Positions 16,992 through 57,488 of a stretch of DNA of 64,000 nt are shown in pieces. Numbering within the stretch: position 1 is the stretch's first letter; every line of letters begins with the position of its first letter. The notes below the pieces were generated by a model. The model searched no databases. It was not told the origin of the DNA and was given only the letters and a program-made list of their open reading frames with translations. This DNA is from Candidatus Lokiarchaeum ossiferum. GTDB taxonomy: Archaea; Asgardarchaeota; Lokiarchaeia; Sigyniarchaeales; Promethearchaeaceae. Position numbers and translations under genes: made by a program. The stretch spans positions 3,233,121-3,297,120 of the forward strand of contig CP104013.1 in NCBI GenBank assembly GCA_025839675.1, in the 5' to 3' direction.

Positions 16992-17006
16992 GCTGATGAG
17001 AAAATC

Positions 17007-18991: not shown

Positions 18992-19008
18992 CAAAGGTTA
19001 GTTCATCA

Positions 19009-24583: not shown

Positions 24584-24790
24584 AAAAAAAATAAGATTTA
24601 TAGTTTCCTAAATGCTCAATTTAAGAGTTTTAGCGAAGAAAAAACCTATTTGGAACAATTTAAAAAAATATTAGCAATTTCAAATAAGATCTCTCAAACA
24701 CAAATAGCAGATATGATGAATATATCTGAAAAACAATTGTTGTCTCTGCTAATGAACTGGAGTGATACCATTTCGTTCAAAAGTAAGTGA
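24584..24790 (+). pseudogene. Start-less gene fragment encoding an HTH-like C-terminus
   Basis: An open frame with no initiator runs from the stop codon at 24581-24583 to the stop at 24788-24790. It reads ...EEKTYLEQFKKILAISNKISQTQIADMMNISEKQLLSLLMNWSD... and contains the 39-bp repeat. Confidence 0.3.
24635..24673. repeat. 39-bp perfect direct repeat, left copy (gaagaaaaaacctatttggaacaatttaaaaaaatatta)
   Basis: Identical to 29135..29173, exactly 4500 bp away. Confidence 0.9.
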
Positions 24791-29134: not shown

Positions 29135-29173
29135 GAAGAAAAAACCTATTTGGAACAATTTAAAAAAATATTA
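29135..29173. repeat. 39-bp perfect direct repeat, right copy
   Basis: Identical to 24635..24673. Confidence 0.9.
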
Positions 29174-31693: not shown

Positions 31694-31792
31694 TTATTCC
31701 AAGGAAAAGACCAATGTGGTAGGATGATGAGCCAAAGGTTCCAGTATGGAACAATGCTCAAGGTAGAAGGGGAAATAGGAGGGATTGGGCAT
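31694..31792 (-). pseudogene. 5' stub of the PIN-like cassette gene (MPNPSYFPFYLEHCSILEPLAHHPTT...*)
   Basis: The first 25 residues align with MPPFAEFPFCLENCHVLEPLPHHPKV of 36374..37102. The frame stops after 32 codons. Confidence 0.4.
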
Positions 31793-31870
31793 GAATCACC
31801 ACTTTATTTTAAAGGATTATAAAAAGATCACCATTGTGACAGTTATTCTTCCATTTTGAGATCCTTAAAT
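31787..31870. promoter_or_regulatory. Conserved divergent promoter/leader module, copy A (partial)
   Basis: gggcatgaatca...attataaaaagatcaccattgtgacag, the same block as at 37098, 41036 and 45001. Confidence 0.5.
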
Positions 31871-32861: not shown

Positions 32862-33530
32862 TTGGAAACATTCACCCCAAGTTGGGAAAATTATTACTAT
32901 CGATTTTTCGATGGCTTAGGATATGATGTTGTTCATGTATATACAGGATATACTCGAAATCAGTTTTATAATGAACTTTATCAATGGACACCTCTCATTC
33001 AATGGGATGATGAATTGTTTATTATGATCCAAGGGCACGGGCTTGTGATGGATGATGAAGAAGAGACACCTTTACCGTATTTTACTCTCTATGATGGAGA
33101 TACTTTATATAATGGAGATAATGGTGAAATTTCAGGACAAGACTTCATAAATCGATTGATGTTATTTAGTGCTTTGAGGAAATGTGTATTTTTTGATACT
33201 TGCTATGCTGGAAAAGTGTTAGAAAGTTTTAATTCCGAAATTACCAAAGTTTTTCAAACTACTGATGCTACTCATGCAGCTGTGATGACATGCACTTATT
33301 ATGATGAAGCAATCGAAAATGCAAAATGGGAGAAAAGAAATACTCGGTTGGCAATTTTTTTTTTCCAAACTTTGAGTGCAACAACTTTAAGTGAGGATGG
33401 AATCTTCAATTATTTTCAGTTAGAACTAGCTTTAGAATCGTTATTACCATGGAATGATTTTTGTTACCAAGGAGGCACAATTCTGAATCCAGGTTGGAAT
33501 TTTTTGACTAAATATGGAATGTTATCATAA
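32862..33530 (+). CDS. Stand-alone caspase-like (clan CD-type His/Cys dyad) peptidase-domain protein
   Basis: A hydrophobic strand plus QGHG (LFIMIQGHG), then about 57 aa later a hydrophobic strand plus DxCxAG (KCVFFDTCYAG). About 80% identical to the C-terminal 220 aa of 41250..44498. Confidence 0.5.
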   Translation: METFTPSWENYYYRFFDGLGYDVVHVYTGYTRNQFYNELYQWTPLIQWDDELFIMIQGHGLVMDDEEETPLPYFTLYDGDTLYNGDNGEISGQDFINRLMLFSALRKCVFFDTCYAGKVLESFNSEITKVFQTTDATHAAVMTCTYYDEAIENAKWEKRNTRLAIFFFQTLSATTLSEDGIFNYFQLELALESLLPWNDFCYQGGTILNPGWNFLTKYGMLS

Positions 33531-33558: not shown

Positions 33559-33891
33559 CTATTTTTTTTTTTTAATAGCATTTTTTAATTCCCCAAAGGA
33601 GGTTTCTTTTCGCTTGTTATCATACCAACGTAAACTCCCAGTAAATCTTGACCCATGGTACCAAGTATCTAATAACTTTTTTCCTCCCAGTAAGTGGTCC
33701 CATGATTTTAGTATTTTTAATTCTTTTACGGTTCTTTTAGCAATGCATGAGTTACAGAAATAGATAGGAAGCGAAAAATAAGGGGTGTTTTCCGATGTTT
33801 GTTCGTTTACCGTGATAAATGGGTCCATATCAGTATACCATCTATGGCAAAAGTAGCATAGATTTTTGGAAGGTTCCTCATTTTTGACCAT
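33559..33891 (-). CDS. Small CxxC...CxxC zinc-binding protein. The start is probably the internal Met (MVKNEEPSKN), not the track's 33984.
   Basis: Aligns with paralog 44526..44864 from MMAKNKVPSKNLCYICQQW. The track's N-terminal 31 aa overlap the decayed PIN-like stub. Confidence 0.4.
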   Translation of the reverse strand: MVKNEEPSKNLCYFCHRWYTDMDPFITVNEQTSENTPYFSLPIYFCNSCIAKRTVKELKILKSWDHLLGGKKLLDTWYHGSRFTGSLRWYDNKRKETSFGELKNAIKKKK

Positions 33892-33959
33892 CAATACTAA
33901 TAAGATGGGTTGACAATTGAATTTTTTGGAGAATTTAGGATGCTCAAATAGGCATGAAC

Positions 33960-34187
33960 CTAAAAGATGTTGTTCATGAAACACCCGTAGTGTTGTTCAT
34001 CGAGAGCAAACTTCGCCGACGGGACCGAAAGGGTAAAAAGTTCCTGGAATGTGGATGGGAGGACATTCAATCCATGAAGAAAATCCACGGTGGTCGGATG
34101 GTGATCTAAGGATTCCAGCATGTGACAATTCTCGCTGTCCGTTAAATGTTCTGTGGGGCAGGAGCCACCGTGATCTACCTGTGGCAA
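33960..34187 (-). pseudogene. Decayed N-terminal fragment of the PIN-like cassette gene
   Basis: DSENCHMLESLDHHPTTVDFLHGLNVLPSTFQELFTLSVPSAKFALDEQHYG aligns with LENCHVLEPLPHHPKVVDFLRGLNVPPRILPDLYTLSVPAAKLALYEQHYG. The stretch is GC-rich like the intact gene and is truncated at 75 aa. Confidence 0.45.
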
Positions 34188-36373: not shown

Positions 36374-37102
36374 TTAATAATTTTCGACCATGCGTTCCCA
36401 CTTCGTTTTCCTAGGATATTTGGATTGTATTAGAGTCTTTTGGCGCGCTTTTCGTTTCCGACGTGCCTTTCCACTTTCAAAACGACCAAAATCTTCCACA
36501 AACACGGCGATGTCCGTTTCCTTTACCTGATAGGAAGGAGTTTTAAGCGAGGACGGAAGAGCCGATCGATCAAATTTCCGATGATAGACCCGCCCCATCT
36601 CCTCTAAAATATTCGCTGAGAGAATGAAGGTCACACTCGGATTGGATGTAAACATCTGTCGAATCCGCTCCCGTTGTGATCGCTGGTGATCACAAAAATG
36701 CAGCAGGATATTGGAATCGATCAAAACCATTGCATCCGCGGGTAAGTTGGCAATGTCTTCGGGCCAATAGGCTTCATAGTCCAAAAATTCCCGGAGGTTG
36801 ATCAACAGATGATGATCCAAAGACGCCACCCCCCATTGGTTTTCGGCGGCCAGATAGGCCACGATCCAATCATCCACCCCAAAGGCCAAGGGACGATAAG
36901 GATGTTGTTCTTGAATAACCCCGTAATGTTGCTCATAGAGGGCTAACTTTGCGGCAGGCACCGAGAGCGTATAGAGGTCAGGAAGAATTCGTGGAGGTAC
37001 ATTTAAACCTCGGAGAAAATCTACAACCTTCGGATGATGGGGGAGAGGCTCCAACACATGACAATTTTCGAGACAGAAGGGAAACTCGGCAAAGGGGGGC
37101 AT
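36374..37102 (-). CDS. PIN-like nuclease-domain protein with an unknown N-terminal domain and a basic tail. This is the intact copy of the cassette gene.
   Basis: The C-terminal half has the PIN-like acidic quartet: VLIDSNILL (D), ILEEMG (E), ETDIAVF (D), VEDFGRF (D). The tail is RRKRKARQK. The gene looks markedly GC-richer by eye than its surroundings. Confidence 0.35.
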   Translation of the reverse strand: MPPFAEFPFCLENCHVLEPLPHHPKVVDFLRGLNVPPRILPDLYTLSVPAAKLALYEQHYGVIQEQHPYRPLAFGVDDWIVAYLAAENQWGVASLDHHLLINLREFLDYEAYWPEDIANLPADAMVLIDSNILLHFCDHQRSQRERIRQMFTSNPSVTFILSANILEEMGRVYHRKFDRSALPSSLKTPSYQVKETDIAVFVEDFGRFESGKARRKRKARQKTLIQSKYPRKTKWERMVENY

Positions 37103-37270
37103 GAATCATCTTTTGGTTTCTAAGAAACTATAAAAAGATCACGATTGTGACAGAATTGAGATTTGCGAGTGGTTTTTATAGATCAAAAGCAGTAGTATGG
37201 ATGTAACCATTTGAATACAAAAGGATGAAATGACAAAAGTGGCATTCAAACTTTAGTCCACATCTCTTTA
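37098..37270. promoter_or_regulatory. Conserved divergent promoter/leader module, copy B
   Basis: A TATA-like ctataaaaag (37128) abuts the dyad tcacgattgtga. An oppositely oriented ggtttttatag (37171) follows. The conserved leader ends about 85 bp before the ATG at 37356. Confidence 0.5.
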
Positions 37271-37355
37271 AGACCTAAGGATAATTTTCAGAAAATGTAT
37301 TCGAAACTGGAAACATGAAATTACTAATAACGCAAAACCAAAAAGTGAAAAAAAT

Positions 37356-40300
37356 ATGAAACCAAAAAAATTAATCTTCATCTTTTTTGTAGGAATCCTC
37401 ATGGTCCCCATCTTCCCCCAAGCGCAACTTTCCTTCGCAAGTGCAACGGTGGGTCAAAGTAATGGAGTCTGGGAAATAACCTATAATACTGATGATAGTG
37501 CAAATGTTGGTCCACTCTATGATGCCAACGGATATACTGCAATTTCCGAGTTAGATCCTGCAAGTTCAACCAATACATGGTACGATTATTCCCCATTAGA
37601 AGCAGGACATCAAGAATTAGACTTTGAATGCAATATCAAATTTGAAAATGGAGGTCGGAAACACATTTATCTGTATTTGGATAACGATCCCTCCCAATAT
37701 TTCCTACTGCAATATGAAAATGGGGATGTGTTTTCATACACTACAGATAATTGGGTAAAACAAAGCCAAAATATGGATTATAGTTATAATACTTGGCTGT
37801 CGTTTCAGTTAGAACTGATTCAAACCAGCTCCACCACAAAATTATTAACCGTAACTTTAGGAACCGATTCTTTTTCGATCGAACTGGATAGTGACAGTAC
37901 TGTTGACGCACTCAAAATGCGCACAATGACGGCCGGAAGTTCCGTCTTCTTTTCTGACGTCGAAGTGTCTTATTTGGAGGAATCCTGGCAAAGAATTTAT
38001 CCTGCGGAAAGCTCTGCATCTGCAATACCCCTTAATGATGAAACGGACGATGGACAGCTGTATTCAGATATTTATGAATTGGAGATGGACGTGGGACTGA
38101 ATACGTGGTATGAATATACCAAATCGGGAATTGAATACAATTTCTTGCATTTTGATTGCAATTTGAAATTTCTGGATGGAGGAGCTAGAAAATGGTATTT
38201 TTATTTTGATGATGGGGCTTATTTCATTATCAACTTCGAAAATCAATGGATCAGATCATATGTTTCGAATGCTGACGTGCCAAACTGGGTTTCTCAGAGG
38301 TCTTACGGCTATGGGGATTGGAATCATATCGAATTTGATATCGTTCAAAAGAATTCTGTAACGAAAGAATTAAAAATGAGCATAAATGGGCTCCCATTTA
38401 CTTATCCTGTCCTTATGTCTAGTGGATTCAATGTGAAAATTGAATACTTAAGAGTGCGTCTTCAAACTAGCGGAAGTCTTTTGATTTCCGATATGGCAGT
38501 CGATAATGATCAGGATGGATTGGATGAGGTTGAGGAAGCTATGCTAGGGTCTGATCCTCTCCTTAAAGATACTGATGGCGATTTTGCTTATGATGGGGAA
38601 GAAGCCTCTATCTATGGAACGGATCCAACGGTTCCCGATGAGGCAAATGGTTTTACACTGATCTATCCAGAAGGTGGTCCAGGCAGAGTTGATATTTCCA
38701 CAGATTCATCTACCGGTTCAAAGATATATCAGCTAAATTCGGAAGGTTCATCTAATACTTGGTTTCAACATCGATTGAATGGCCTAAGAGCTCAATCTGT
38801 CGGATTTCATTGTAAAATAAAAGTGCATGATTCTCAAGAAAAATACTTGTACTTCTATTTTGACGATGGTGATTATTTCATAGTTCGATTTATTAATCTA
38901 CATCTCTATACCACCTATATTCATAATGGGGTTGGCAACGGGTGGAGGGATCAGTATATTTATTATGGGGACCAGGATTGGTTGGATTTATCAATCACTA
39001 TTACTGGAGGACCCAATATCAAAACATTAGATGGATCTTTAGATGGAAATCCCTTTGATGATTCCGAATTCATGTATTCGAAAGGTGTTTTTGACAAGCT
39101 TAAAACCCGCCAAACTGGAACGGATAATTTGTGGAGTTTCACGGAGTTTATGATTGATTCGGATTTGGATGAGTTATCTGATGTAGAGGAACTTGATTTA
39201 GGCACCGACCCGACGGATGCGGATTCGGATGGGGATGGGTTAACCGATGGAGAAGAAGTCAATAATCATGGCACTAACCCTCTAGTGGCGGATTCGGATG
39301 GTGATAAATTTTCTGATCTCCTCGAAATTCGTGGGAAATTAAATCCTATGGATCCCAGCGATGTATTTACAGATGAATGCACCCTTGGAGGTTATGTTCC
39401 AAGCGAATGGGTGATTCCAAGCTCAGATGTGGGCATCCAAGCAATACCAAATGATTGGGATGATACTAGTTATTTAAGCGACAATTTTATGCTCTCTATC
39501 AGTCCCACATATCGGCACGATTCTCGCAGTATAGAAATTCCATTACAACAACTAGATGTCATGGAAAATTTTGCATTTTCATGTTATGTTGGGCAAAATT
39601 GGTTAGGAGGTGAAGAATCATGGCAAATTTATATTAAAGATACTTCAGGAAAAGGTTTTGCTTTGAACTATAAAGGTGATCAATTCTACATTAGTGATAC
39701 TACACTTCTTTCTTTCAGCTCGGATATTATTCAAGTACCTAATCCAAATAAAATTATGCATGAAATGAGGATAACCTTAAAATTTGTTGGCGATCATACC
39801 GATATTTTCCTATATTTTGCAGATACTTCAATGGGTAACTACTCCATCGAGATGGGAAAAATGTTATCCAAAATCATTGTTACTCGAACAACGACTTTTA
39901 ATACTCCTGAGATACCCTCCTTTGGATTTGATAATTTTAAAATAATCCAATGGAAATGGCCTTATTATAAATTGATGGAAACTTATCCTTCTAATGAAGG
40001 GAGAGATGGGCATTTAACCATTAATAACGTCCAAAAAGGCGTTGGTAAAGGACCTGGGTTCTATGAAATAATGTCCTCTGTCGATTTTGATCGGAATTGG
40101 AATGATGATGGTTTGGAAGGGATGCACTTGGATGGTTCTTTTTGTGATACAGGTTCCTTCAATTTTGTTTCTCATGCAAAATTATTTGATATATTCGGGA
40201 CTGGAATTACCCAACCTCAATCAAGTATAACTAAAATGGAACTTGATTTAAAGATCAATGGTCCTGATGGTCCTATCGATTTATCTACAGCAAATGGAAT

Positions 40301-40841
40301 CAGTAATCTAATAGATCCATACTTAATTAACATGATTGAAAATTTGGACACTATTACAGATTTAAATGAGGTTACTGAAATTCTTGAAGGAGTTGGGACA
40401 CTCTACCAAGTAACAGAACAATTATTAGATATGTATGATACCGTACCTGAATCACTTCAAGATGTTTTGGGACCAATTTCCCTGGTTATGGATCTTGTGG
40501 GTTTTTATTCTGAGGAAAATACACCACATCCCGAGTGGACTTGTGATACATTAGATAATGATCCTTATACCTATCAAGTCAAATATGACTTTGATTTCGT
40601 ATCTGGAGTTTCTTGGGGTAGTACAAATTTTGCTATGGGATTTAATTTAAATTTTTACGAAGTAATTGAACATCTTGAAGAAACAATGGATATTGGTGAC
40701 AGATACACTTTTACGATAACTCAAAGAACATTCTTGACTGGGATTTCCTATAATTGGATCTTTGGAAGATGGGAAGAATCCACAGAAATTATGGTTGAAG
40801 ATACTTTTAAATTTGAACTCACATCCACCGATTCTTTTTAG
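37356..40841 (+). CDS. Giant secreted protein with three roughly 190-aa jelly-roll/LamG-like repeats separated by Ca-binding DxDxDG (TSP3-like) linkers
   Basis: Signal peptide MKPKKLIFIFFVGILMVPIF. Internal repeats carry NTWY.Y...FDCNLKF..GG.K.Y.YFDDG.YF. DTDGDF, DSDGDGLTDGEE and DSDGDKFSD motifs. Confidence 0.55.
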   Translation: MKPKKLIFIFFVGILMVPIFPQAQLSFASATVGQSNGVWEITYNTDDSANVGPLYDANGYTAISELDPASSTNTWYDYSPLEAGHQELDFECNIKFENGGRKHIYLYLDNDPSQYFLLQYENGDVFSYTTDNWVKQSQNMDYSYNTWLSFQLELIQTSSTTKLLTVTLGTDSFSIELDSDSTVDALKMRTMTAGSSVFFSDVEVSYLEESWQRIYPAESSASAIPLNDETDDGQLYSDIYELEMDVGLNTWYEYTKSGIEYNFLHFDCNLKFLDGGARKWYFYFDDGAYFIINFENQWIRSYVSNADVPNWVSQRSYGYGDWNHIEFDIVQKNSVTKELKMSINGLPFTYPVLMSSGFNVKIEYLRVRLQTSGSLLISDMAVDNDQDGLDEVEEAMLGSDPLLKDTDGDFAYDGEEASIYGTDPTVPDEANGFTLIYPEGGPGRVDISTDSSTGSKIYQLNSEGSSNTWFQHRLNGLRAQSVGFHCKIKVHDSQEKYLYFYFDDGDYFIVRFINLHLYTTYIHNGVGNGWRDQYIYYGDQDWLDLSITITGGPNIKTLDGSLDGNPFDDSEFMYSKGVFDKLKTRQTGTDNLWSFTEFMIDSDLDELSDVEELDLGTDPTDADSDGDGLTDGEEVNNHGTNPLVADSDGDKFSDLLEIRGKLNPMDPSDVFTDECTLGGYVPSEWVIPSSDVGIQAIPNDWDDTSYLSDNFMLSISPTYRHDSRSIEIPLQQLDVMENFAFSCYVGQNWLGGEESWQIYIKDTSGKGFALNYKGDQFYISDTTLLSFSSDIIQVPNPNKIMHEMRITLKFVGDHTDIFLYFADTSMGNYSIEMGKMLSKIIVTRTTTFNTPEIPSFGFDNFKIIQWKWPYYKLMETYPSNEGRDGHLTINNVQKGVGKGPGFYEIMSSVDFDRNWNDDGLEGMHLDGSFCDTGSFNFVSHAKLFDIFGTGITQPQSSITKMELDLKINGPDGPIDLSTANGISNLIDPYLINMIENLDTITDLNEVTEILEGVGTLYQVTEQLLDMYDTVPESLQDVLGPISLVMDLVGFYSEENTPHPEWTCDTLDNDPYTYQVKYDFDFVSGVSWGSTNFAMGFNLNFYEVIEHLEETMDIGDRYTFTITQRTFLTGISYNWIFGRWEESTEIMVEDTFKFELTSTDSF

Positions 40842-41035
40842 ATTTTTATTGCTTTTTTTTTCTCAGGCTATAAGTATATTTTTTTTCTCATTTTTGATAA
40901 TATTTTCTTGATTTAAACGGAGAAAATATGAGTTATGAAATTTTGATGAAAATCAAGAAATTCTTTTCATTATGAAAACCCGAAAAATAAGAAGAAAAAC
41001 ATCTTTCCGAAACATCCATTGATATCTCATCAAGC

Positions 41036-41190
41036 ACCTATAAAAAGATCACGATTGTGATAGTTGTGCAAATTGCGAGTGGTTTTTATAGATCAAAAGC
41101 AGTATTATGGATGTAACCATTTGAATACAAAAGGATAAATGGACAAAAGTGAGAAACCGATTTTTGTTCCACATCTCCTTAATAGTAATT
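41036..41190. promoter_or_regulatory. Conserved promoter/leader module, copy C (lacks the minus-gene stub)
   Basis: cctataaaaagatcacgattgtgatag...ggtttttatagatcaaaagcagtattatggatgtaaccatttgaatacaaaaggat. Confidence 0.5.
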
Positions 41191-41249: not shown

Positions 41250-44200
41250 ATGAATCAAAAAAAAAGACTGCTATCGTTATATGCGTTGCTTCTTTTGACC
41301 TGTTCCGCCTTAATATATACTAATATGGGAACTGGGGTCGCAGAAATCAATATTTCAGAATGGACAAATGTGCCAAATTATGGTCCTTCGGAATTATCCA
41401 ATTTCATGGATGAAGATCGAGGGGAGGTAATGAAAATATATGATGCCGGATGGGGATTAGTCCAAAAGGATATAATTCCGCAATATATTGCAGGAAACAA
41501 AATTTGGTATTCCTATTGCGTGAAAGTAACTGGTGGGGAATCGAATGATTATGGGGGGGTGAATTTAAGCCCATCTACCATCAACACTGGGGCCGTAGGA
41601 ATGCGAATTCATGCGGGAACGAGTTTAAAATATTGGCTTGGAGATGGACAAGAGCATGATACATTCATTGACGTAGAAACAGATCAATGGTACCACATAG
41701 GATGTTCATATGAGTCTGATGGTCAATTCGAAGCATATTTGGATGGGGAGATGATCCTTTCAGAACAAGCCAAGCCTATCAGCAATTTAAATTATGTTTA
41801 TGCTGCAACATGCTCCCAATCAACTTTTCTGGATGATATCTATGTTGGAGTTTCTAAGGATGAAGCATTTAATAGTTTCCAAGATGAAGTAACTACCATA
41901 CTAATTGATGATTTTTCGGAAGATTCGATTGGGTTTTTACCCTTAGATTGGGAACTAACTGCAGGCGGATATTCATCTTTTAGAACTGTAGAACTAGCCG
42001 AATCTCCATATGATCAGGTTTTAAGAATCTATGATTATGGACAAATTCCCACCGTATACTCAAAAGTGGAAAAAAAAATTCCCGCTGGTTTTGGATCTAT
42101 TGAATGGGATTTAAAAACAGATTCACCAGGAAATAATAATGGTTATTTCGGATTGATGGAAGGGGATAATTGGTTGATATCGATTGGGATAATAAATAAT
42201 CAATTCAGAGTTTATTACCACAATGATCATGCTTCGTATAGTGTCTACGACACAAACGTTGTTGCTTCAAATCAATGGACCCACCTTAAAATGGAGTATG
42301 ATGGCGAGCAAGATGATTGTCGAATATTTGTTAATGGGGTTGAGGTAAGAAGTACACCATTCAATACAAAATATGCCTCTTTTGTTGATGGTCTATATTT
42401 ACACTCAGGAGAAACTGGATCTGGAAAAAGTTATTATGACAACATTCAAGTGAACTGGGTAAAACAGCGTGTGGATTCTTTTATGGAATATGCTGGCATT
42501 ATCAATTTTGATGATAGTTACAATCAAGATCCTCTAGCAAGCTGTCAAGAATGGTCTTCCGATGTTAATTCGGGCTATCAAATCCTAGATGCAGTGACCA
42601 CACACTCAAGTGTATTGGCAATAACCGATTTAGTTTCTTCTTCGAGCTGCTTTACAAAACTAAACATTAATACTCCTTTAGGGGTTGGAGGCTGTGTAGA
42701 AGGATGGATATCTGGATCGAGTATCATAAATAATGCGTATATGGGCATTAATTTTGGGGATAATTACTGGTTATTGTCCGTGGGGATCAATAATGGTCAT
42801 TTTAAAGTTTATCATCGAACGAGCTATTCAACATATAGTACCGCTGTTTCTACCATAGAAGCAAATCCAAATCAATGGTATTTTGTTTGTTTATATTATG
42901 ATGGTATGTCTGATATTTGTACTGTATCGATAAATGGTGTTACTATTGGACAATATAGTCTTTATGACGTTGCTGGAATTACATCAATATATCTCCATTC
43001 GGGAGAAAATGGGGGGGGTACAAGTTACTATGACTCAATTTCGTATGATTGGGCAAATGAATATGATGCAGGAGATGCAAGAATAATAGACTTCGATAGG
43101 GACCATTTAAGCCACAAGTATGAAGAGACCCATATTTATGAATCTGGATTAAAAACTTCTCCTTGGAAATGTGATTCTGATAATGATAGGGTAAATGATT
43201 GGGATGAAATCTGTGGTATCTACGGATATATTACTGATCCAACTCGGATTGACTCTGAACCGATTGGATCTGAAGATGGGCTGAATGATTATTTAGAATT
43301 ATTTAGATATCATACCGATCCAACTCACTATGATTCTGACCGTGATGGGCTGACTGATGGAGATGAAGTCAACTTATATGGCACCGACCCGACCACGGCG
43401 GATTCGGATGGGGATGGGTTGACCGATGGGGAAGAAATAAATGGGTATGATATGATGTATCTAGACGAGCTTTATCATGAACATAAATATGCAACATATT
43501 ATACAAATCCGCTTCTTGTTGATTCAGATAATGATAATTGGAGTGATAAGCAAGAACTTGATTTGATACAAGCTGATTTAGATCAAATTCATGAACCTAA
43601 TCCTGCGGTAGATAACTATCGGTATTTAGATCCAATGTGCCGAGATAGTGATTTAGATTTTCTTCCCGATGGATGGGAAGAATATTATGGACTCGATCCT
43701 TGTGAATATAATTCAGAGCTGGAATTAATCGAAAACAATGTTCCTGATATATATTATTTCTTTGCGCCAATTCAAGAACCAGATCAAGAACGGGTCTCGG
43801 GATTGCGAATTGCCTTGATATTCATTAATCCAGACATAGTTTCGCCAAGTTGGGCAAATTATTACTCTCGAGTCTTCGATAAGCTAAATTATGATGTAGT
43901 GCATGTTTATACAGGTTACACCCGAAATCAGTTTTATAATGAATTGTATCAGTGGACACCCCTTATTCAAGCGGATGATGAATTATTTATAATGATCCAA
44001 GGACATGGGCTGGTGGAGGACAATGAAGAAGAAACTCCGTTGGCGTATTTCACTCTTTATGATGACGATGAGGTGTTTGACCAGGATGTTGGTGAAATTT
44101 CGGGACAAGAGTTTTTAAATCGATTGAAGTTATTTAGTGCCTACAGGAAATGTGTGTTTTTTGATACCTGTTTCGCTGGAAAAGTGCTTGAAAATTTCGA

Positions 44201-44498
44201 TTCGGAAATAACTAAAGTCTTTCAAACTACTGATGCCACCCACGCACAGTATAGAACAGTCAGCAAATTTGATAAGATTATGCAGAATGCTAAGTGGGAG
44301 AAAAGAAATACTTATGTTGCATCATTTTTCTGGGATACTTTAGGTGCAACCACTCTAAGTGAAGATCCAATTTTCAAATATATTCAGGCGGATTTGGCAT
44401 TTGGTTCTCTTTTACCGTGGAGTCGAACGGGTTATCAAGGAGGAACTATTTTGAATCCGGGCTGGAATTATTTGGAACGTTATAATATATTTGTCTAA
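41250..44498 (+). CDS. Giant secreted LamG/jelly-roll protein with TSP3-like Ca-binding repeats and a C-terminal caspase-like peptidase domain
   Basis: Signal peptide. WYHIGCSYESDG.FEAYLDGEMI is LamG_3-like. DSDGDGLTDGEE is present. The C-terminus has LFIMIQGHG ... KCVFFDTCFAG. Confidence 0.55.
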   Translation: MNQKKRLLSLYALLLLTCSALIYTNMGTGVAEINISEWTNVPNYGPSELSNFMDEDRGEVMKIYDAGWGLVQKDIIPQYIAGNKIWYSYCVKVTGGESNDYGGVNLSPSTINTGAVGMRIHAGTSLKYWLGDGQEHDTFIDVETDQWYHIGCSYESDGQFEAYLDGEMILSEQAKPISNLNYVYAATCSQSTFLDDIYVGVSKDEAFNSFQDEVTTILIDDFSEDSIGFLPLDWELTAGGYSSFRTVELAESPYDQVLRIYDYGQIPTVYSKVEKKIPAGFGSIEWDLKTDSPGNNNGYFGLMEGDNWLISIGIINNQFRVYYHNDHASYSVYDTNVVASNQWTHLKMEYDGEQDDCRIFVNGVEVRSTPFNTKYASFVDGLYLHSGETGSGKSYYDNIQVNWVKQRVDSFMEYAGIINFDDSYNQDPLASCQEWSSDVNSGYQILDAVTTHSSVLAITDLVSSSSCFTKLNINTPLGVGGCVEGWISGSSIINNAYMGINFGDNYWLLSVGINNGHFKVYHRTSYSTYSTAVSTIEANPNQWYFVCLYYDGMSDICTVSINGVTIGQYSLYDVAGITSIYLHSGENGGGTSYYDSISYDWANEYDAGDARIIDFDRDHLSHKYEETHIYESGLKTSPWKCDSDNDRVNDWDEICGIYGYITDPTRIDSEPIGSEDGLNDYLELFRYHTDPTHYDSDRDGLTDGDEVNLYGTDPTTADSDGDGLTDGEEINGYDMMYLDELYHEHKYATYYTNPLLVDSDNDNWSDKQELDLIQADLDQIHEPNPAVDNYRYLDPMCRDSDLDFLPDGWEEYYGLDPCEYNSELELIENNVPDIYYFFAPIQEPDQERVSGLRIALIFINPDIVSPSWANYYSRVFDKLNYDVVHVYTGYTRNQFYNELYQWTPLIQADDELFIMIQGHGLVEDNEEETPLAYFTLYDDDEVFDQDVGEISGQEFLNRLKLFSAYRKCVFFDTCFAGKVLENFDSEITKVFQTTDATHAQYRTVSKFDKIMQNAKWEKRNTYVASFFWDTLGATTLSEDPIFKYIQADLAFGSLLPWSRTGYQGGTILNPGWNYLERYNIFV

Positions 44499-44525
44499 AT
44501 TTCGGGATAGTGAGTAGTTTTGCTC

Positions 44526-44864
44526 TCACTTTTTTTTTATTTCTTCTGCATTTAATGAATCCCCAAAAATGATTTCCTTACGCTTTCTATCAACCAACCG
44601 CAAATTTCCCGTAAATAAGGGCATATGAAGCCACGTATTTAATAATTTTTCCCCTCCCAGTACATGATCCCATGATTTTAATATTGTTCTTTCGTTTTTC
44701 GATATTTTCGCAAGGCACGAGCTACAAAAAAAAATAGGTAATGGATATGGAATGGAATTATTGGGTCTTTTTTCGGTTACCGTAATAAATGGGGACATAT
44801 CAGCACGCCACTGTTGACATATGTAACATAAGTTTTTGGAAGGTACTTTGTTTTTGGCCATCAA
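44526..44864 (-). CDS. Small CxxC...CxxC zinc-binding protein (cassette partner)
   Basis: LCYICQQW...FFCSSCLAK. Paralog of 33559..33891. Confidence 0.45.
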   Translation of the reverse strand: MMAKNKVPSKNLCYICQQWRADMSPFITVTEKRPNNSIPYPLPIFFCSSCLAKISKNERTILKSWDHVLGGEKLLNTWLHMPLFTGNLRLVDRKRKEIIFGDSLNAEEIKKK

Positions 44865-44934
44865 TGTTAGCTATGAAGGGCAGACTATTGAAATTTTTGG
44901 CGAACTTCTACTCCTTGGTCTTTCTGAAATTCAC

Positions 44935-45006
44935 TTAGTTTATATTGATGATGAGCCGTAAATTCCAATTCTCGAGATCGAAGGGGACCTCGGAGGGGAG
45001 GGGCAT
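44935..45006 (-). pseudogene. 23-codon stub of the PIN-like cassette gene (MPLPSEVPFDLENWNLRLIININ*)
   Basis: Starts at the conserved gggcatgaatc position of module D. Aligns with MPPFAEFPFCLENCH. Confidence 0.35.
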
Positions 45007-45165
45007 GAATCGCCCTATGTTTTTGGGATGCTATAAAAAAAACTCGCTTGTGACAGAAGTGTAAATTTCGTGTGGTTTTTATAGATCAAAGTCAATATTA
45101 AGCATGTAGCCATTTGAATGCAAAAGGATGAAATGACAAAACTGGAATTCAAGCTATCGTCTTTG
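45001..45165. promoter_or_regulatory. Conserved divergent promoter/leader module, copy D (more diverged)
   Basis: gggcatgaatcgcc...gctataaaaaaaactcgcttgtgacag...gtggtttttatagatcaaag...catttgaatgcaaaaggatgaaatgacaaaa. Confidence 0.45.
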
Positions 45166-45230: not shown

Positions 45231-48029
45231 ATGTTGGATAAAAATAAAAAAGGCAAGAAGAAATTGTCCTTGGGATCTAAAATCGGAATGTGCCTCTTCA
45301 TTGTTGCGATGATCTCTACCAATAGCCCAAATCTGATAAAAAGCGCTTCAGCAATTTCCGTGAATGATTGGGAATTAAATCCTGAATGGGAAGGGTGGGA
45401 AGAGGATTCTACTCTTGGAAATCAATATACACGCGTCGCTGAATATTCAGATTTAGGCTCACGAGATCCGGTGTTGGGACTCCGCGATGGTTCCTATTAT
45501 GGAGAAGCGAAAATAAAGAATGAATTTCCCAACCAACCTGCGGGGGCTTTTTCCACCGAATTGAAAATCGTTGAAACCTCTTATGGAAATGAGGATTGTT
45601 CTTTTATTCGATTTTATTCAGGAACAACAATTGCTGCTGCTTTAATTATTGATAATAATTTTAGATATGCTCCTGACCAAGGAGTATCCGATGCCCCTAT
45701 AAGATCGATCAATGTGGAATTGGAGACGTGGTACCACTTTGCTGCTGAATGGAATAGTCAAGCAACTGGAACTAATGAGTGGACATTTTACATTAACGGT
45801 CAAATTATTGCTCAGTTCGATTCGACCAATCCGTTTTCAGGAATTAATAATATCACAATTAGTACATATCTTGGCGATATAACTCATAATCTGACCTTAC
45901 ATAACCTACGACATATGGATGATTCTTCCACAATTAACCAAATTTGGGAAGAAGATAAATTTTTTGAATGGACTAGCGGTGGGACGAATCAATGGTGTCA
46001 TATTTCGACTAACATTTTTGAAGATCGAAACGTGTTAAAACTAAACGATGGTTCATGGGTCGGGGAAGCAATCGCAACAGCGAACTTTGATTTATCCGAA
46101 AAGGGATCGTTTTCTACAAATATTCGAATTGTTGATTCTGGTTATGGAGAAACAGATTGTTTCCTAATTAGATTTCTCTCAGGATCGACTGTGAGCAGCT
46201 ATATGACCATGTGGGAAGATCAAGGTGTAAATACGATCAGATTTTGTGGATCTGACGGCAATTCTTACCCCACAGGATCAACATACTCTACTAATGTGTG
46301 GAATGATGATTTCAAAGCCGAATGGGATTGCTCAGGAAGTGGTAAAGACCAATGGGTTTTTTCTCTGGGAGGCACAGTAATAAAGACATTTGAATCTGAA
46401 AAATACACTTCAGGAATTAATCAAATTTCGATTCGCTCTTTATATAGCAAACCAACCAATTATGTCTATTTTAATGATATTCAAATCGATTCGGATGATG
46501 ATGGTCTATCACGTAAAGAAGAATTGCTCTTTGGCACCGACCCGACCACGGCGGATTCGGATGGGGATGGGCGCGAGGACGGGGTGGAGATTAGATATAT
46601 GACAAATCCTATAATAAATGAAGTCTTTTGGGAAGATTTTGAAGAAATTTCTTTACCAAGTGGATATATTGATAATGGAGATACTATCGGAGAGTGGCAA
46701 GTGGCTAAAGATAATGATGATTTTTGTGATCTATATGTCGATCAGAGTCCAAGCTATTGGGGAGAATCTTCTCAAGTTTTATGGCTTCATACTACTGATG
46801 AAAGTCTCATTGATATTTATAAAAATGATATCGCTTCATCTGGAGATAATTTGGTTTATTTTCGCTCCTCTATTAGTATAGGACAGCTTCAGTATCAACA
46901 GTTTTATGTTGATTTTACCTATGGAACTTCTTCACGCTTGCATTTTCTGTTTTCTAGTGGAGAATTATTTTTCTGGGATTCCTATTATATATATGGGAAA
47001 CACCTTACTGCTTATAAACCTGTATATGATGCAGCGAGCAATGTTGTTGTTTATAGTGAAGATCAAAAAATTGATTTCGAAGTATTCATTGATAAGGACC
47101 AATCCACTTGGACTCTGAAATGGAATGGACAAGCAATAATGAAGCAATATGATCTTGATTTTGGTAATACTTTTAATCGAGTGATTTTAGGCACACCATC
47201 AACATCTTCTGGACGAGTTTTTCTTGATGATCTCGTTTTTGAACATGGGAAAATCACTAAAGATGATTCGAAGACCTTATACAATAAAATAGTTCCGAAT
47301 ATAGTCGCCTGTTTACCTGGGTTCAATGAGGAATTCTCTGAAGATTCTATTGGCGATACTAGCCTTGTAGGATTAGAAATATCATCAATCGTTTCTCGAG
47401 ATACTGAGTATTCCTTCAATTTTCCTTTTGTTTCAGTTAGTTATGATGATGAAATTGAAACGGGTCCACATCATGATGAGGTTCGAACAATTGGTCAAGA
47501 ACATTGGTATTGGTACTATAAAATTTATGGAGATATTGAATTTTACTCAATCGACTTAACAGAGTATTCATATTCTGCTTCCTTTTTGGCATTTTATTCA
47601 TTTGACCCATATTCAACTCAAAACACCGTACTTACCAATCATCCCTATTCAGATCTCCGCGATGATTGCTCGTATTTAAATCAGGAAACATTTGATTATT
47701 GGGTCCAGCCATCATATACTTCTGAATACTCTTGTCCTCAACAATACACGGATTCTGGGAGTCAAACTCAAAAAGGATGGGATTACACCATTAGTAAACA
47801 AACCACATTAGGATTGAATTTTGAGTTATCCTTTGCCACACCAGTCCAATCAATTTCTCTTCCCCTTGGCATATCTTTTGCATTCAATGTTGAACGAGAT
47901 TTAGATTTCTGGTACTATCTGATATTGAAAGATACCCATACTTCTACTAAATCAGTAACTTATAATATGAATGCCAATGTAGCTAAAGGTTTTTATACTT
48001 TTTTTATTAGTGATTTTAAGATTCACTAA
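45231..48029 (+). CDS. Giant secreted LamG/jelly-roll surface protein with one TSP3-like Ca-binding motif
   Basis: Signal/anchor region (KIGMCLFIVAMISTNSP). Repeated ETDCFLIRF..G motifs. DSDDDG...DSDGDGREDG. Confidence 0.55.
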   Translation: MLDKNKKGKKKLSLGSKIGMCLFIVAMISTNSPNLIKSASAISVNDWELNPEWEGWEEDSTLGNQYTRVAEYSDLGSRDPVLGLRDGSYYGEAKIKNEFPNQPAGAFSTELKIVETSYGNEDCSFIRFYSGTTIAAALIIDNNFRYAPDQGVSDAPIRSINVELETWYHFAAEWNSQATGTNEWTFYINGQIIAQFDSTNPFSGINNITISTYLGDITHNLTLHNLRHMDDSSTINQIWEEDKFFEWTSGGTNQWCHISTNIFEDRNVLKLNDGSWVGEAIATANFDLSEKGSFSTNIRIVDSGYGETDCFLIRFLSGSTVSSYMTMWEDQGVNTIRFCGSDGNSYPTGSTYSTNVWNDDFKAEWDCSGSGKDQWVFSLGGTVIKTFESEKYTSGINQISIRSLYSKPTNYVYFNDIQIDSDDDGLSRKEELLFGTDPTTADSDGDGREDGVEIRYMTNPIINEVFWEDFEEISLPSGYIDNGDTIGEWQVAKDNDDFCDLYVDQSPSYWGESSQVLWLHTTDESLIDIYKNDIASSGDNLVYFRSSISIGQLQYQQFYVDFTYGTSSRLHFLFSSGELFFWDSYYIYGKHLTAYKPVYDAASNVVVYSEDQKIDFEVFIDKDQSTWTLKWNGQAIMKQYDLDFGNTFNRVILGTPSTSSGRVFLDDLVFEHGKITKDDSKTLYNKIVPNIVACLPGFNEEFSEDSIGDTSLVGLEISSIVSRDTEYSFNFPFVSVSYDDEIETGPHHDEVRTIGQEHWYWYYKIYGDIEFYSIDLTEYSYSASFLAFYSFDPYSTQNTVLTNHPYSDLRDDCSYLNQETFDYWVQPSYTSEYSCPQQYTDSGSQTQKGWDYTISKQTTLGLNFELSFATPVQSISLPLGISFAFNVERDLDFWYYLILKDTHTSTKSVTYNMNANVAKGFYTFFISDFKIH

Positions 48030-48593: not shown

Positions 48594-48752
48594 TTACTCG
48601 TTCTCTGGTATTAAAGCAGCCTTCAATTTCCGAACCGCTTCCTTGATCACTTCTGCCCGTGAACTATACCCAAATTTGGGATTCTCGAGGATTTTATCAA
48701 TATATTCTTCCACAAAAGGTTCAGGCAACGAAATCGAAGCAAATTTTCCCAT
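48594..48752 (-). CDS. CopG/Arc/MetJ-type ribbon-helix-helix protein (52 aa). Missed by the ORF track because it is under 60 aa.
   Basis: Hand translation gives MGKFASISLPEPFVEEYIDKILENPKFGYSSRAEVIKEAVRKLKAALIPENE*. The strand SISLP...Y, the FGYSSRAEVIREA helix and its length are the classic RHH signature. Confidence 0.55.
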   Translation of the reverse strand: MGKFASISLPEPFVEEYIDKILENPKFGYSSRAEVIKEAVRKLKAALIPENE

Positions 48753-49435
48753 ATTTGCTCTAGAGATGCCCTACTATTTATGTTTGTTGCTTGGTTTAAG
48801 TTCAATTATGTATCCATGATATATAAGTGAAGTATGATAGATCGATAAATTATATTTATAAGGATGCGTTTCATACAATTATGTATCAAACACAGATCAA
48901 GCACGAGTAATGCTGATTCTTTTTGAACATGTCTTCCGAGTTTATAAGTTTCAAAAAGTAATTACAGTATCATAAATCTGGAAAAACAGATCTGTTTGGT
49001 AACCTATAGATTAGCGACAAACGTCCCAAGAGGTCTCATTATGTCTCAAAAACCTAGAATATCAATAACAACAGGGCAAAGGTCAACATCCTGTGTCAAT
49101 CCTACCAAGTCTCCGTCAGAACCGCACGGATCTCCCATATCTGCCATCAATCCATTGGCAGATCAATCGCTTTCTCCTTCTGGATCTAAATTTTATTATC
49201 AGTATTTTAACGATCAAAATCATATTGAATGTTTTTGAACGTGAGCGATTATTATGGGAAAGCACTCATGAGGAACTCAGCTACTTACTTTTACATGTAT
49301 CCAATAAAAATGACCTTATATCATCTCTATCAACAAAAAAGAGCTTCAAAATTAAAGGATCAGATAATCTTACCTTATGCTAGATTTCAATAAAAAATCA
49401 TGATCAGATTTAATTTTGGAATATTAGAAAAAGAT

Positions 49436-49541
49436 TGGTGGGAAAGGTGGGCTTCGGACCCACGACCTCTGCCTTATCAGGGCAGCGCTCGATTGCCTTC
49501 ATATGAAGAGATACATACAATCCAGGCTAAGCTACTCTCCC
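49436..49541 (-). tRNA. tRNA-Ile(GAU) candidate with a roughly 28-nt non-canonical (D-loop) intron and a genomically encoded 3' CCA
   Basis: Minus strand: GGGAGAG-TA-GCTT-AGCCTGGAtt[GTATGTATCTCTTCATATGAAGGCAA]TC-GAGC-G-CTGCC-CTGATAA-GGCAG-AGGTC-GTGGG-TCCGAAG-CCCAC-CTTTCCC-A-CCA. The acceptor stem is 7 bp with one G-U. The anticodon loop CUGAUAA gives GAU. The T-loop reads TCCGAAG, which is atypical (no U55). About 30 extra nt lie between the D-loop and the D-stem 3' strand, flanked by GATTG/CAATC pairing. Confidence 0.55.
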
Positions 49542-50124
49542 GTTTCTGTTTTTACAAAACTGTCTGATATTTAACAATTTTATAATAGTCGGGATAAACA
49601 GACTATAATTGTCACTCATGATGGAACAATTAAAAAATTTCCGATTTTCATTCCATAAAAAGTTCTCTGTTTCAATCCGAACAGTGGTTTGACAGTTTTA
49701 GGGGATTCAATTTACATGGGTGGCATTTGCTTCGTGGGGGGGAATTGTCGAAAGTATATAAGAATCTAGGATCTAAAAAAAAAGTCGAGTTGTGCGAAAA
49801 AAACCAAGAAATCGCAATGTGAGAAGGACAATTTTTTACAACAACTGAGCAAAGAAAAACCATAGAATACTAGGAATTATAAAATGGATTTCAGAGATTT
49901 GAGTGAAGAAGGGGTAAAGTTTTAAAAAAAATTGAAAGAAATAGTTTTTTGAAAGAAAGTGGGAAGATTCCACATAATTCTTCAAGTAATTTATTATTTA
50001 CAAGCGTCTCAAGTTCTACATCGGTGGAGGATTTTAAAATCAAAGAGATTTTTTCATTTGTCATGGATCTTTTTTGATCGAATCTTTTTTAATTATTTAT
50101 GACTAAATATAAATTAAGATAAAA

Positions 50125-50589: not shown

Positions 50590-50840
50590 TTTTTTTTTAA
50601 GAATATTATCTCAGATAATGTTTTTTCATATTGATCATTCATAGAATGCAAGAAGAAATTGGATTTTTCCAAAGATAAAGAGGTCTGGAAAAAAAGTTGG
50701 ACTTCTTTTTTAGAATTTTTTCTCATTTTGAGGAAAAATTTCTTTCAGGGAAAATCTCAGTTCATCCTTTTGCATTCAATATTTGAACACTATTCATAGG
50801 GTGATATTTCTATTTAAACACCGTGGTAATAGCAAAATAA

Positions 50841-51107
50841 TCACTCATGTGATCTTTTTATATTTATCCATTGTTTCAAATCGAGCATATCTTCCTCGTA
50901 TTTTTCAACGAGAGTCCGATATTTCTTTTGATAGATGCGTTCGGGAAGCAAGCCAACACTCCGGAACAACAACATCATATTCAAAAATTCCAGTTTCATT
51001 TCAAACGGCCAACTATCGATGGGGTCATCCTTATAAACGGAGACTCGAGAGATCCCCGCCGATCCCAAGTTGATTTCAAAATGGCACTTTTTATGCGGTT
51101 TGTTCAC
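50841..51107 (-). CDS. Hypothetical protein. One of three mutually overlapping ORFs; the minus-strand one looks most protein-like.
   Basis: Balanced composition (MNKPHKKCHFEINLGSAG...KYRTLVEKYEEDMLDLKQW). The two overlapping plus-strand frames are low-complexity. Confidence 0.2.
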   Translation of the reverse strand: MNKPHKKCHFEINLGSAGISRVSVYKDDPIDSWPFEMKLEFLNMMLLFRSVGLLPERIYQKKYRTLVEKYEEDMLDLKQWINIKRSHE

Positions 51108-57295: not shown

Positions 57296-57455
57296 AATGT
57301 AGTCAACATATTTTTCTAAGATTCTTGCAAATTTTGAGAAAAAATATACTTCTTTTAATCATGTAGGCTTCAAAAATTAGTGACTACTTTGCATTTTGGT
57401 TTTGAACATATATATTATAGAAAAAAATCTATTTAAACTCGGTGGTGTTAGCAAA

Positions 57456-57488
57456 ACTGACACAATCATGATCTTTTTATAGATTCCT
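57456..57488 (-). promoter_or_regulatory. Cassette promoter motif on the minus strand (ggaatctataaaaagatcatgattgtgtcag)
   Basis: Reverse complement of the TATA-plus-dyad motif seen upstream of the plus-strand giant genes. Lies about 160 bp upstream of the ATG at 57295. Confidence 0.5.

Follow-up and report, generated by a model that had tools for sequence, protein, structure and literature searches.

A repeated promoter-plus-leader cassette in front of giant secreted-protein genes in a strain-specific island of Candidatus Lokiarchaeum ossiferum

The cassette and its copies

The 64-kb stretch of DNA analyzed here (the window), from Candidatus (Ca.) Lokiarchaeum ossiferum B-35, carries a repeated promoter-plus-leader cassette of ~100 bp in front of genes for giant, apparently secreted proteins. 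The motif is real and probably regulatory, and six copies of it are present in a strain-specific island. Its parts, in order, are a TATA-like box (box 1), a candidate dyad TCAC-N4-GTGA, a second TATA-like box of opposite orientation (box 2) and a leader. The reading that we prefer, and to which we give about an even chance, is that the cassette is the promoter of the giant genes and has box 2 as its TATA box, and that box 1 and the dyad lie upstream of it as an element shared ancestrally with a divergent gene for a PIN-domain protein.

A preliminary description of this DNA had placed the motif at 37128, 41036, 31815, 45031 and 57456. All five occurrences are present (three of them are given here as 41038, 31817 and 57482), and a sixth, on the minus strand at 50862, was added. 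The core motif, CTATAAAAAG-A-TCAC-N4-GTGA-CAG, can be recognized at each of the six sites. A search for the 26-mer CTATAAAAAGATCACGATTGTGACAG that allowed up to three mismatches found it, with no more than two, at 37128(+), 41038(+), 31817(+) and 57482(-), and gave 0 matches in dinucleotide-shuffled sequence. The copy at 45031 is diverged and still legible in the sequence, with a profile E-value of 3e-14. The sixth copy (50862..50809, minus strand), overlooked in the preliminary description, was recovered by a repeat search and by the profile. Across the whole window the nhmmer profile returned exactly six copies and nothing further with E<0.9. Anchored on box 1, all of them (named below by position, e.g., c37128) align without gaps to ~+95. 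The preliminary description had also noted an oppositely oriented box about 40 bp further on, and this is borne out: the starts of box 1 and box 2 are exactly 44 bp apart in five of the six copies.

Two sub-families were distinguished by the sequence of box 2, which is TTTTTATAG in sub-family A (c37128, c41038 and c45031) and TTTAAATAG in sub-family B (c57482 and c50862). Copy c31817 has only a degenerate box 2, TCCTTAAAT. In c37128, box 1 occupies 37129..37136, where it reads TATAAAAA on the plus strand and TTTTTATA on the minus strand; these bases are invariant in all six copies. The dyad, TCAC-GATT-GTGA, follows at 37139..37150 and box 2, a TTTWWATA-type TATA box oriented toward the giant gene, at 37173..37181. 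Further on are an initiator (Inr)-like TG at 37202..37203 and a leader block, TTGAATACAAAAGGATGAA, at 37211..37229 (plus strand) that is common to four copies.

Copy c41038 (41039..41139, plus strand) has box 1 at 41039-41046, a dyad extended to 5+5 bases (ATCAC/GTGAT) at 41049-41060, box 2 at 41083-41091 and the leader block at 41121-41139. Copy c45031 (45032..45132, plus strand) has box 1 at 45032-45039, box 2 at 45076-45084 and the leader block at 45114-45132; in its dyad region (ACTC GCTT GTGA, 45042-45053) the left half-site is gone. In c31817 (31818..31870, plus strand), box 1 is at 31818-31825, the dyad at 31828-31839 and the degenerate box 2 at 31862-31870. The remaining two copies are on the minus strand. 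Copy c57482 (57429..57481) has box 1 at 57481-57474, a weakened dyad (TCAT GATT GTGT) at 57471-57460 and box 2 at 57437-57429. Copy c50862 (50761..50862) has box 1 at 50862-50855, the dyad ATCAC ATGA GTGAT, box 2 at 50818-50810 and the leader block at 50779-50761.

The open reading frame (ORF) at 37356-40841 on the plus strand is 100% identical to NEF87_002777 of Ca. L. ossiferum B-35. Further ORFs correspond to NEF87_002770, 002778, 002780, 002787 and 002788 of this strain, and the window spans NEF87_002770-002788. Archaeal markers among the window genes include an aSelB domain III and a beta-CASP, aCPSF-like protein. Because these genes are archaeal and the host is Ca. L. ossiferum, the archaeal promoter framework applies.

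Four giant genes, starting at 37356, 41250, 45231 and 53669(-), encode proteins with signal-peptide-like N-termini, TSP3 calcium-binding repeats and LamG/ConA-like domains. NEF87_002777, a secreted TSP3-repeat protein (37356..40841, plus strand; 1,161 aa from the first ATG and 1,146 aa in the annotation), lies behind c37128. NEF87_002778 (41250-44498, plus strand) lies behind c41038, NEF87_002780 (45231-48029, plus strand) behind c45031 and NEF87_002787 (53669-57295, minus strand, ATG at 57268) behind c57482. Pairwise alignment of the giant proteins recovers only the TSP3/LamG repeats and short stretches of 24-35% identity. A search of 5.8 billion proteins gave no homologue of NEF87_002777 beyond TSP3 repeats and yielded no orthologous loci.

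The statement that the motif precedes every giant gene thus stands for the four LamG/TSP3 giants but not as a general rule: c31817 precedes a 250-aa gene, c50862 a remnant, and the gene for a 1,071-aa helicase has no copy. The 250-aa gene, NEF87_002770, is unrelated, and after it comes a fragment of 222 aa with 73% identity to the C-terminal part of giant 41250. All that follows c50862 is a remnant ORF of 51 codons, with a start (MRK...) similar to that of giant 53669. The loci of both of these copies are decayed.

Conservation of the core and of the dyad

Mean identity between the sub-families, for which the random expectation is 0.275, is 1.00 in box 1, 0.75 in the GA plus dyad that follows it and 0.64 in box 2. 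It is 0.39 in the stretch from dyad to box 2, 0.32 in the 30 nt upstream of box 1, 0.23 further upstream and 0.25 beyond +116. Since the giant proteins share only TSP3/LamG repeats and the flanks are at background, the core (box 1, dyad and box 2) is selectively maintained, rather than a residue of duplication.

The sequence TCAC-N4-GTGA is perfect in four of the six copies (31828, 37139, 41049 and 50841) and has no further occurrence in the window. In two copies it extends to 5+5 bases, and in two it is damaged (TCAT...GTGT in c57482 and ACTC...GTGA in c45031). Perfect 4-N4-4 palindromes are common in the 64-kb window (397 vs 250 expected), and the symmetry of the dyad could therefore have arisen by chance. 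Taken alone, the 4+4 dyad lacks significance; it is the conservation of the block that exceeds chance. Substitutions affect 4 of 48 half-site positions and 6 of 24 spacer positions, in six copies only, which are phylogenetically dependent, and c50862 has kept both 5-nt half-sites (ATCAC/GTGAT) with all four spacer bases changed. This pattern lends modest support to a dimer site.

Polarity of the two boxes

Toward the giant genes, box 2 reads TTTTTATA or TTTAAATA (TTTWWATA) in five of six copies. Box 1 presents TTTTTATA on the opposite strand, toward the PIN gene, at -34..-27 from its ATG. The same TATA form occurs at other promoters in the window, as AAAAG-TTTAAATA before 26969(-) and as TTTAAATA before 34564; these other promoters combine an A-rich B-recognition element (BRE) with TTTAAATA, TTTATATA or TTTATAG toward the gene. 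In the co-directional intergenic spacers of ~97 kb of Lokiarchaeum sequence (the window, L008 and a relative's contig, L009), TTTWWATA exceeds its complement 9 to 4, a weak, suggestive excess. By this rule, in which the T-rich half comes first, box 2 would be the core-promoter TATA of the giant genes and box 1 that of the PIN gene.

The BRE position before box 2 reads GAGTGG, ACCGAG or ACGGTG, and that before box 1 on the minus strand reads GTGATC; both positions are G-rich, and neither has an A-rich BRE. We read the G-rich sequence before box 2 as a weak BRE, not as the absence of a promoter. Binding of TBP is near-symmetric and direction is set by TFB-BRE contacts (PMC7289017), and in Pyrococcus a single TATA box can fire bidirectionally, with TSS (transcription start site) pairs ~50 bp apart (PMC6640164). 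Thus, sequence alone cannot settle polarity. The preliminary description had suggested overlapping divergent archaeal promoters. The archaeal nature, the two opposite TATA-like boxes and the divergent gene on one side all hold, but the promoters are arranged back-to-back and do not overlap. Box 1 and box 2 also form a 9-bp inverted repeat, the sole inverted repeat of the cassette.

Transcript-like contigs of NEF87_002777

An exact-protein look-up of NEF87_002777 returned four Logan contigs. One, from the genomic run SRR22273277, covers 37197-41102, and its neighbor contig ends at 37192. The breaks at 37197 and 41102 are explained by 31-mers shared by c37128 and c41038, which have exact runs of 32 and 31 nt in common, and are typical of genomic reads. 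Repeated 31-mers start only at 37163, 37164 and 37196, and those starting at 37197-37222 are unique.

The other three contigs cover the NEF87_002777 gene only. That from SRR32148621 (37223-40858) carries foreign, GC-rich sequence of 31-33 nt at each end, that from SRR27313661 (37229-40859) has the reverse complement of the Read-1 adapter fused to its 3' end and that from SRR27313660 (37269-40859) has the Read-2 adapter fused to its 5' end. The transcript as assembled in the three runs thus occupies 37223..40859 on the plus strand, and the contig structure looks like the pattern expected for RNA-seq of an abundant monocistronic mRNA. A transcriptome of L. ossiferum B35 with two replicates has been published (PRJNA1054498; PMC11216029). 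The foreign ends of the SRR32148621 contig (L030, 1-31 and 3668-3700), which lie exactly at 37223 and 40858, resemble chimeras formed at true RNA termini by template switching or ligation.

The 3' end is at 40858/40859 in all three runs, within a T9 run and 17-18 nt past the stop codon, and this run (40851-40862) resembles an intrinsic terminator of the oligo-T type, here in an Asgard archaeon. In the preferred reading the giant genes would be transcribed independently, and termination of NEF87_002777 in the oligo-T run is monocistronic. Only NEF87_002777 was assembled full-length from the RNA-seq-like runs, although the promoter at c41038 is almost identical.

Given that the 31-mers from 37197 to 37222 are unique, the 5' boundaries reflect loss of coverage rather than repeats. 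The 5' ends lie at least 43 nt past the end of box 2 (22-27 nt is the usual distance from TATA box to start), and they give only an upper bound on the start of the transcript. As a calibration, contigs from the related runs SRR32148622 and SRR32148623 begin ~0-45 nt downstream of the TSS predicted for each of three other genes. The data fit an abundant RNA with a 5' end at, or a few tens of nucleotides upstream of, 37223, that is, at ~37203 (box 2 +23) or at a processed or primary end at 37223. The Inr-like TG 22-23 nt after box 2, conserved in five copies, predicts a TSS at 37203, a weak indication, as TG is common. A start at ~37159 is disfavored, and box 2 is favored as the TATA box of the giant gene, because at least 58 nt of coverage would have to be missing in each of the three runs, for a gene that is otherwise well covered.

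In the preliminary description, the dyad had been placed between the TATA box and the TSS. This is not what the contigs suggest, as they begin after box 2 and not ~23 nt past box 1 (~37159). With the transcript boundary downstream of box 2, the dyad is placed upstream of the giant core promoter. It is most likely ~50-75 bp upstream of the giant-gene TSS (-75 to -50) and across the BRE of the PIN promoter, and thus a candidate upstream or shared site.

The leader

Within sub-family A (three tandem copies), homology of the leader extends over 174 nt at 71-76% identity, and across the sub-families only a 19-nt block, TTGAATRCAAAAGGATGAA, remains, in four copies and 50 or 51 nt after the start of box 2. 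The conserved leader of about 190 nt that had been described is therefore shorter in sub-family A and reduced to this block elsewhere. The length of the 5' untranslated region (UTR) is kept at about 125-155 nt, with the block in its first ~25 nt, and each gene has a GGTGA-like ribosome-binding site 8-10 nt before the ATG. Two contig 5' ends, 37223 (the chimeric junction) and 37229, lie inside the block. The block may act as a promoter element (initially transcribed or downstream), as a processing site or as the target of a protein or small RNA (sRNA).

No Rfam match reached the gathering score in the window, the consensus fold of the aligned leaders from RNAalifold was neither stable nor covarying (-3.5 kcal/mol, 0 compensatory pairs) and no small leader ORF is conserved between copies. 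A structured-RNA leader or riboswitch was excluded on the first two of these grounds. A Shine-Dalgarno role for AAAGGATGA in the leader is unlikely, as ~130 nt separate it from the start codon and every gene already possesses a GGTGA-like site of its own.

The PIN gene and the ancestral unit

The divergent PIN-domain gene (36374..37102, minus strand; 242 aa) has its ATG at 37102, 26 nt from box 1, a geometry like that of a leaderless or near-leaderless archaeal mRNA. Its product matches "hypothetical/PIN domain-containing" proteins of Ca. L. ossiferum, with 99% identity to a fragment encoded on the 6,035,313-bp chromosome, and is an FCF1-like form with an N-terminal extension. The AlphaFold model (pLDDT 54) is too poor for the N-terminal domain to be judged as a DNA binder.

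A PIN start is found 25-26 nt from box 1 on the other strand in three copies: intact at 37102, with 32 codons at 31792 and with 23 codons at 45006. The PIN 5' end with this spacing is part of an ancestral repeat unit. The duplicated region 32862-34190 matches 43845-45010 and includes a giant C-terminal domain and a Zn-ribbon-like ORF. As these were duplicated along with the PIN start and cassette, the ancestral unit was ordered [giant]-[Zn-ribbon ORF, minus]-[PIN, minus]-[cassette]-[giant]. Copy c57482 has kept 17 nt of the PIN-side spacer and lost the PIN gene, and c41038 and c50862 have no homology upstream of box 1. Edges of homology that vary in this way from copy to copy are expected of decaying duplicates, not of a mobile element with defined ends.

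Truncated PIN 5' remnants are present at 31695-31792(-), 44935-45006(-) and 33960-34187(-), the last of which has 75 codons and no cassette in front. The C-terminal domain of the giants is duplicated at 32862-33530 and 43845-44498 (73% amino acid identity) and has an H-G...D-x-C motif recalling caspase-like proteases, with no Pfam match. Also duplicated is the small CxxC Zn-ribbon-like ORF, at 33559-33984(-) and 44526-44864(-).

Proposed mechanism and alternatives

In the mechanism that we infer, including the exact TSS, the binding of a protein at the dyad and the sign of regulation, the upstream element would consist of the invariant octamer TATAAAAA, then GA, then the candidate dyad. Box 2, TTTWWATA(G), 44 bp past the start of box 1, would serve as the core-promoter TATA of the giant gene. 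Transcription would begin at the Inr-like TG at ~37203 and give a 125-155 nt 5' UTR containing TTGAATRCAAAAGGATGAA. The upstream element would formerly also have been the promoter of the divergent, near-leaderless PIN gene. A dimeric factor on the dyad, with a half-site 2 bp from box 1, would block TFB/TBP at the PIN promoter, and the same factor would be placed as an upstream activator or co-regulator of the giant promoter with its weak, G-rich BRE. Palindromic sites activate when they lie upstream of BRE/TATA and repress when they lie downstream of TATA (PMC4706686), and weak-BRE promoters need an upstream factor (PMC5937170). Since box 1 is perfect at copies that lack the PIN gene, it may there be part of the recognized element, or TBP/TFB bound to it may contribute to control of the giant gene.

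Several observations weigh against this reading, and some of them favor an assignment that we consider unlikely yet deserving of serious attention, in which box 1 is the TATA box of the giant gene. The BRE would then be a purine run upstream of box 1, the TSS would lie at ~37159 (22-25 nt on), the dyad would be a repressor operator and box 2 would be an opposite-facing TATA box or part of the UTR; in a variant, box 1 fires both ways (BRE-TATA-BRE). Box 1 is the sole element that is 100% conserved in all six copies, and it is perfect in three (c41038, c57482 and c50862) that have neither a PIN gene nor a remnant, so that a role as the PIN TATA cannot be the whole cause of its conservation. On the plus strand it is preceded by a purine- or A-rich run (AGAAAC, GATAAA), with purines (RRR) at -7 to -5 in six of six copies, a better match to the BRE rule (PMC7289017) than the sequence before box 2. 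A TG also occurs 22 nt after box 1 in five of six copies, and c31817 retains box 1 and the dyad without box 2. Box 1 could also fire toward the giant gene: the distance from the PIN ATG to 37159 is 57 bp, to be compared with the ~50 bp between TSS pairs at the bidirectional TATA boxes of Pyrococcus (PMC6640164). The contigs bound the 5' end only from above, that end could be processed, and we take the runs to be RNA-seq from contig structure and one paper. Nevertheless, the contigs stop at 37223-37269, where unique 31-mers would have allowed 37197 or 37165. Toward the giant gene, TATAAAAA is the reverse of the T-first form of other promoters, and box 2 is a perfect TATA consensus in two versions at fixed spacing, which a position in the UTR would not explain.

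Other difficulties for a promoter with a regulator at the dyad concern the regulator. No binding protein for the dyad was found: of the candidates named in the preliminary description, the ribbon-helix-helix (RHH) protein (48594-48752) has a sub-threshold Pfam match (E=0.025) and the product of 52385-53179 has an HFX_2341-like N-terminal domain, with no winged helix-turn-helix from Pfam. No TrmB domain was identified among the window proteins scanned. Alignment of the copies with orthologous loci had been proposed; box 1 is invariant among the six, but the scans gave no orthologous copies for independent footprinting. Two copies have a damaged dyad. Slightly less probable than the reassignment of box 1, in our judgment, is that there is no dedicated regulator, and that the cassette is the shared core-promoter region of paralogous units, kept by selection for TBP/TFB contacts, by gene conversion or by both, with a fortuitous palindrome. 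This would accord with the abundance of 4-N4-4 palindromes, the imperfect dyads, the long exact runs of c37128 and c41038 (consistent with recent conversion), the confinement of all copies to 26 kb of one island and the absence of the motif from other genomes scanned. However, GA-TCAC...GTGA-CAG lies outside the TATA boxes and is still conserved above the dyad-to-box-2 stretch (0.75 vs 0.39), c50862 has kept its half-sites with the spacer replaced, and the sub-families are at background elsewhere, so conversion would have to be confined to ~25 bp.

The leader block could instead be the functional site, acting in 5'-UTR processing, as a protein- or sRNA-binding site or as an attenuator, with ordinary DNA boxes. 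We regard this as very improbable as the main account, although it is compatible with our preferred one. The block is found in both sub-families at +50/51 from box 2, two contig 5' ends fall within it, UTR length is kept and oligo-T runs occur 45-90 nt into every leader. Set against these are the poor fold with 0 compensatory pairs, the absence of an Rfam family match or conserved small ORF, and c57482, which serves an intact giant and has only a degenerate block. Least credible of all, and highly improbable in our estimation, is that the cassette is a recombination or mobility substrate, i.e., a portable promoter or a crossover site for phase or antigenic variation. Copies do face both ways, a second Lokiarchaeum genome lacks the island, a 98-nt repeat (D7, described below) brackets one giant and coincides with a strain breakpoint, and box 1 and box 2 form an inverted repeat. 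But the boundaries vary by copy, with no defined ends or target duplications, each giant has its own copy rather than a single expression site, and the window gave no recombinase or integrase. The variant junction seen in two contigs (L034/L035) passes through D7 instead of the cassette and could be a chimera of RNA assembly.

A mobile element, a miniature inverted-repeat transposable element and an invertible promoter were rejected because of the variable boundaries, the lack of a recombinase/integrase domain and the restriction of inverted repeats to the 9-bp box pair. Also dropped were an origin-recognition box, a dif/Xer site and a CRISPR leader, for which there is no sequence or contextual resemblance.

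Comparison with known systems

A promoter plus transcription-factor site is in itself a familiar kind of thing. In its working the arrangement seems closest to a palindromic transcription-factor site that lies upstream of a promoter or overlaps it, as for TrmB/TrmBL1 or TFB-RF1, to which a back-to-back divergent promoter is added. The Thermococcales glycolytic motif (TGM), the site of TrmBL1 in Pyrococcus furiosus (TATCAC-N5-GTGATA; PMC4706686) has the same TCAC/GTGA cores beside BRE/TATA, is shared by several units and, as here, leaves an ambiguity in that position sets the outcome. The spacing in the cassette is N4 and not N5, and the flanks are gATCAC/GTGAca instead of TATCAC/GTGATA. The targets are giant secreted proteins in a strain-specific island rather than sugar metabolism, and the window proteins scanned include no TrmB-family member. 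Thus, the cassette is not a TGM: the agreement is limited to the TCAC/GTGA cores. The TM promoter is repressed by TrmB through the same overlap of site and BRE as that proposed for the dyad and the PIN gene.

TFB-RF1 (PF1088, TCTG-N5-CAGA; PMC5937170) provides a similar case of a short palindrome upstream of a weak BRE, from which an upstream factor helps to recruit TFB. Its site abuts the BRE, whereas here ~15 bp separate the end of the dyad from the BRE position of box 2, and it is box 1 that the dyad adjoins; the sequences are unrelated. The BRE-TATA-BRE promoters of P. furiosus (PMC6640164) share a near-symmetric AT-rich TATA box; box 1 is at the right distance for PIN and has a BRE-like run on its other side. 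Unlike in that system, there are two boxes 44 bp apart with a dyad between them, and the contigs reveal no abundant transcript that box 1 would start in the direction of the giant gene.

Genes for PIN-domain (VapC-type) toxins have palindromic operators that overlap their promoters. The overlap of the dyad with the BRE/TATA of the PIN gene is of the same kind, but here there is no antitoxin partner gene, the PIN protein has 242 aa and the dyad is kept where the PIN gene has been lost. In the vsp/vlp systems of Mycoplasma, conserved upstream non-coding DNA precedes fast-diverging surface-protein genes in a variable region. The cassette differs in lacking a poly-A/poly-GA slippage tract, an invertase and a single expression site, and each gene has a complete promoter.

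For Asgard archaea, the searched literature contained no mapped TSS or described promoter or operator. The cassette provides a natural replication, with six copies, two sub-families and two decayed controls, and a test case for Asgard TBP/TFB at back-to-back TATA boxes and for their regulation by an upstream palindrome. Beyond this, it draws attention to giant secreted LamG/TSP3 proteins encoded in a strain-variable island; one or more of them is apparently well expressed, and they are plausible cell-surface or partner-contact proteins of a syntrophic archaeon. It is improbable, but conceivable, that the cassette is a portable expression module in a hypervariable island of giant adhesins, and that the invariant box 1 and dyad are the landing site of an island-encoded switch protein that chooses which of several unrelated giant surface proteins is made and controls the PIN nuclease gene oppositely. 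Hints in this direction are that NEF87_002777 alone was assembled full-length, that the island is missing in the second genome and that two of six copies are decayed. If true, this would be an antigenic-variation-like or partner-recognition program in the closest cultured relatives of eukaryotes.

Distribution and the strain-variable island

Exact-pattern scans, which detect near-identical copies only, gave no further copy in species-representative genomes, viral contigs or JGI metagenomes. In the species-representative genomes there were 6 single bacterial chance matches. Matches to the box-plus-dyad and leader patterns in viral contigs all lacked the rest of the cassette, and the 14 matches to box 1-N30-32-box 2 in JGI metagenome contigs had neither dyad nor leader. 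The motif is absent from the PIN paralogue and orthologue loci L008, L009 and L010.

A second complete Lokiarchaeum genome, CP163304.1 (compared over L042, 1-20324), is syntenic with the window at 14682-19961 (87% identity), 49426-49743 (92%) and 57595-64000 (99%). It lacks 19962-49425 and 49744-57594 (~37 kb), which include all six cassettes and the four giants, and has an unrelated gene for a 1,107-aa protein instead. The cassette therefore belongs to a strain-variable island. The uneven identity of the flanks (87% on the left and 99% on the right) suggests recombination between lineages.

D7 is a 98-nt direct repeat (53465-53562 and 57597-57694, 94% identical) that brackets the giant at 53669-57295 and its cassette; the right-hand synteny with CP163304.1 starts exactly at this repeat. 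Contigs L034 and L035 (SRR32148623/21) join 53559 directly to 57597, and represent either an RNA-assembly chimera via the shared 45 nt or a real deletion variant without the giant gene. A tRNA-like fragment at 49439-49497(-), with 23.6 bits against RF00005 (below the gathering score of 29) and no ARAGORN prediction, lies at the edge of the variable region, within a 318-bp segment that is 92% conserved in CP163304.1. It may be a remnant integration target.

Other features of the island

Between the two cassette clusters, at 48594-53179, is a patch of small nuclease- or regulator-like ORFs. Its members include the RHH-like protein (sub-threshold), a PD-(D/E)XK protein (E=2.4e-5), a GIY-YIG protein (E=1e-7) and the protein with the HFX_2341-like N-terminal domain. 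This patch, together with a DEAD/ResIII helicase (20203-23418) and the PIN genes, gives the island a defence-island flavor. Also identified, beside small ORFs, was a 39-nt perfect direct repeat, GAAGAAAAAACCTATTTGGAACAATTTAAAAAAATATTA, at 24635-24673 and 29135-29173, 4.5 kb apart, with a looser third copy at 24891.

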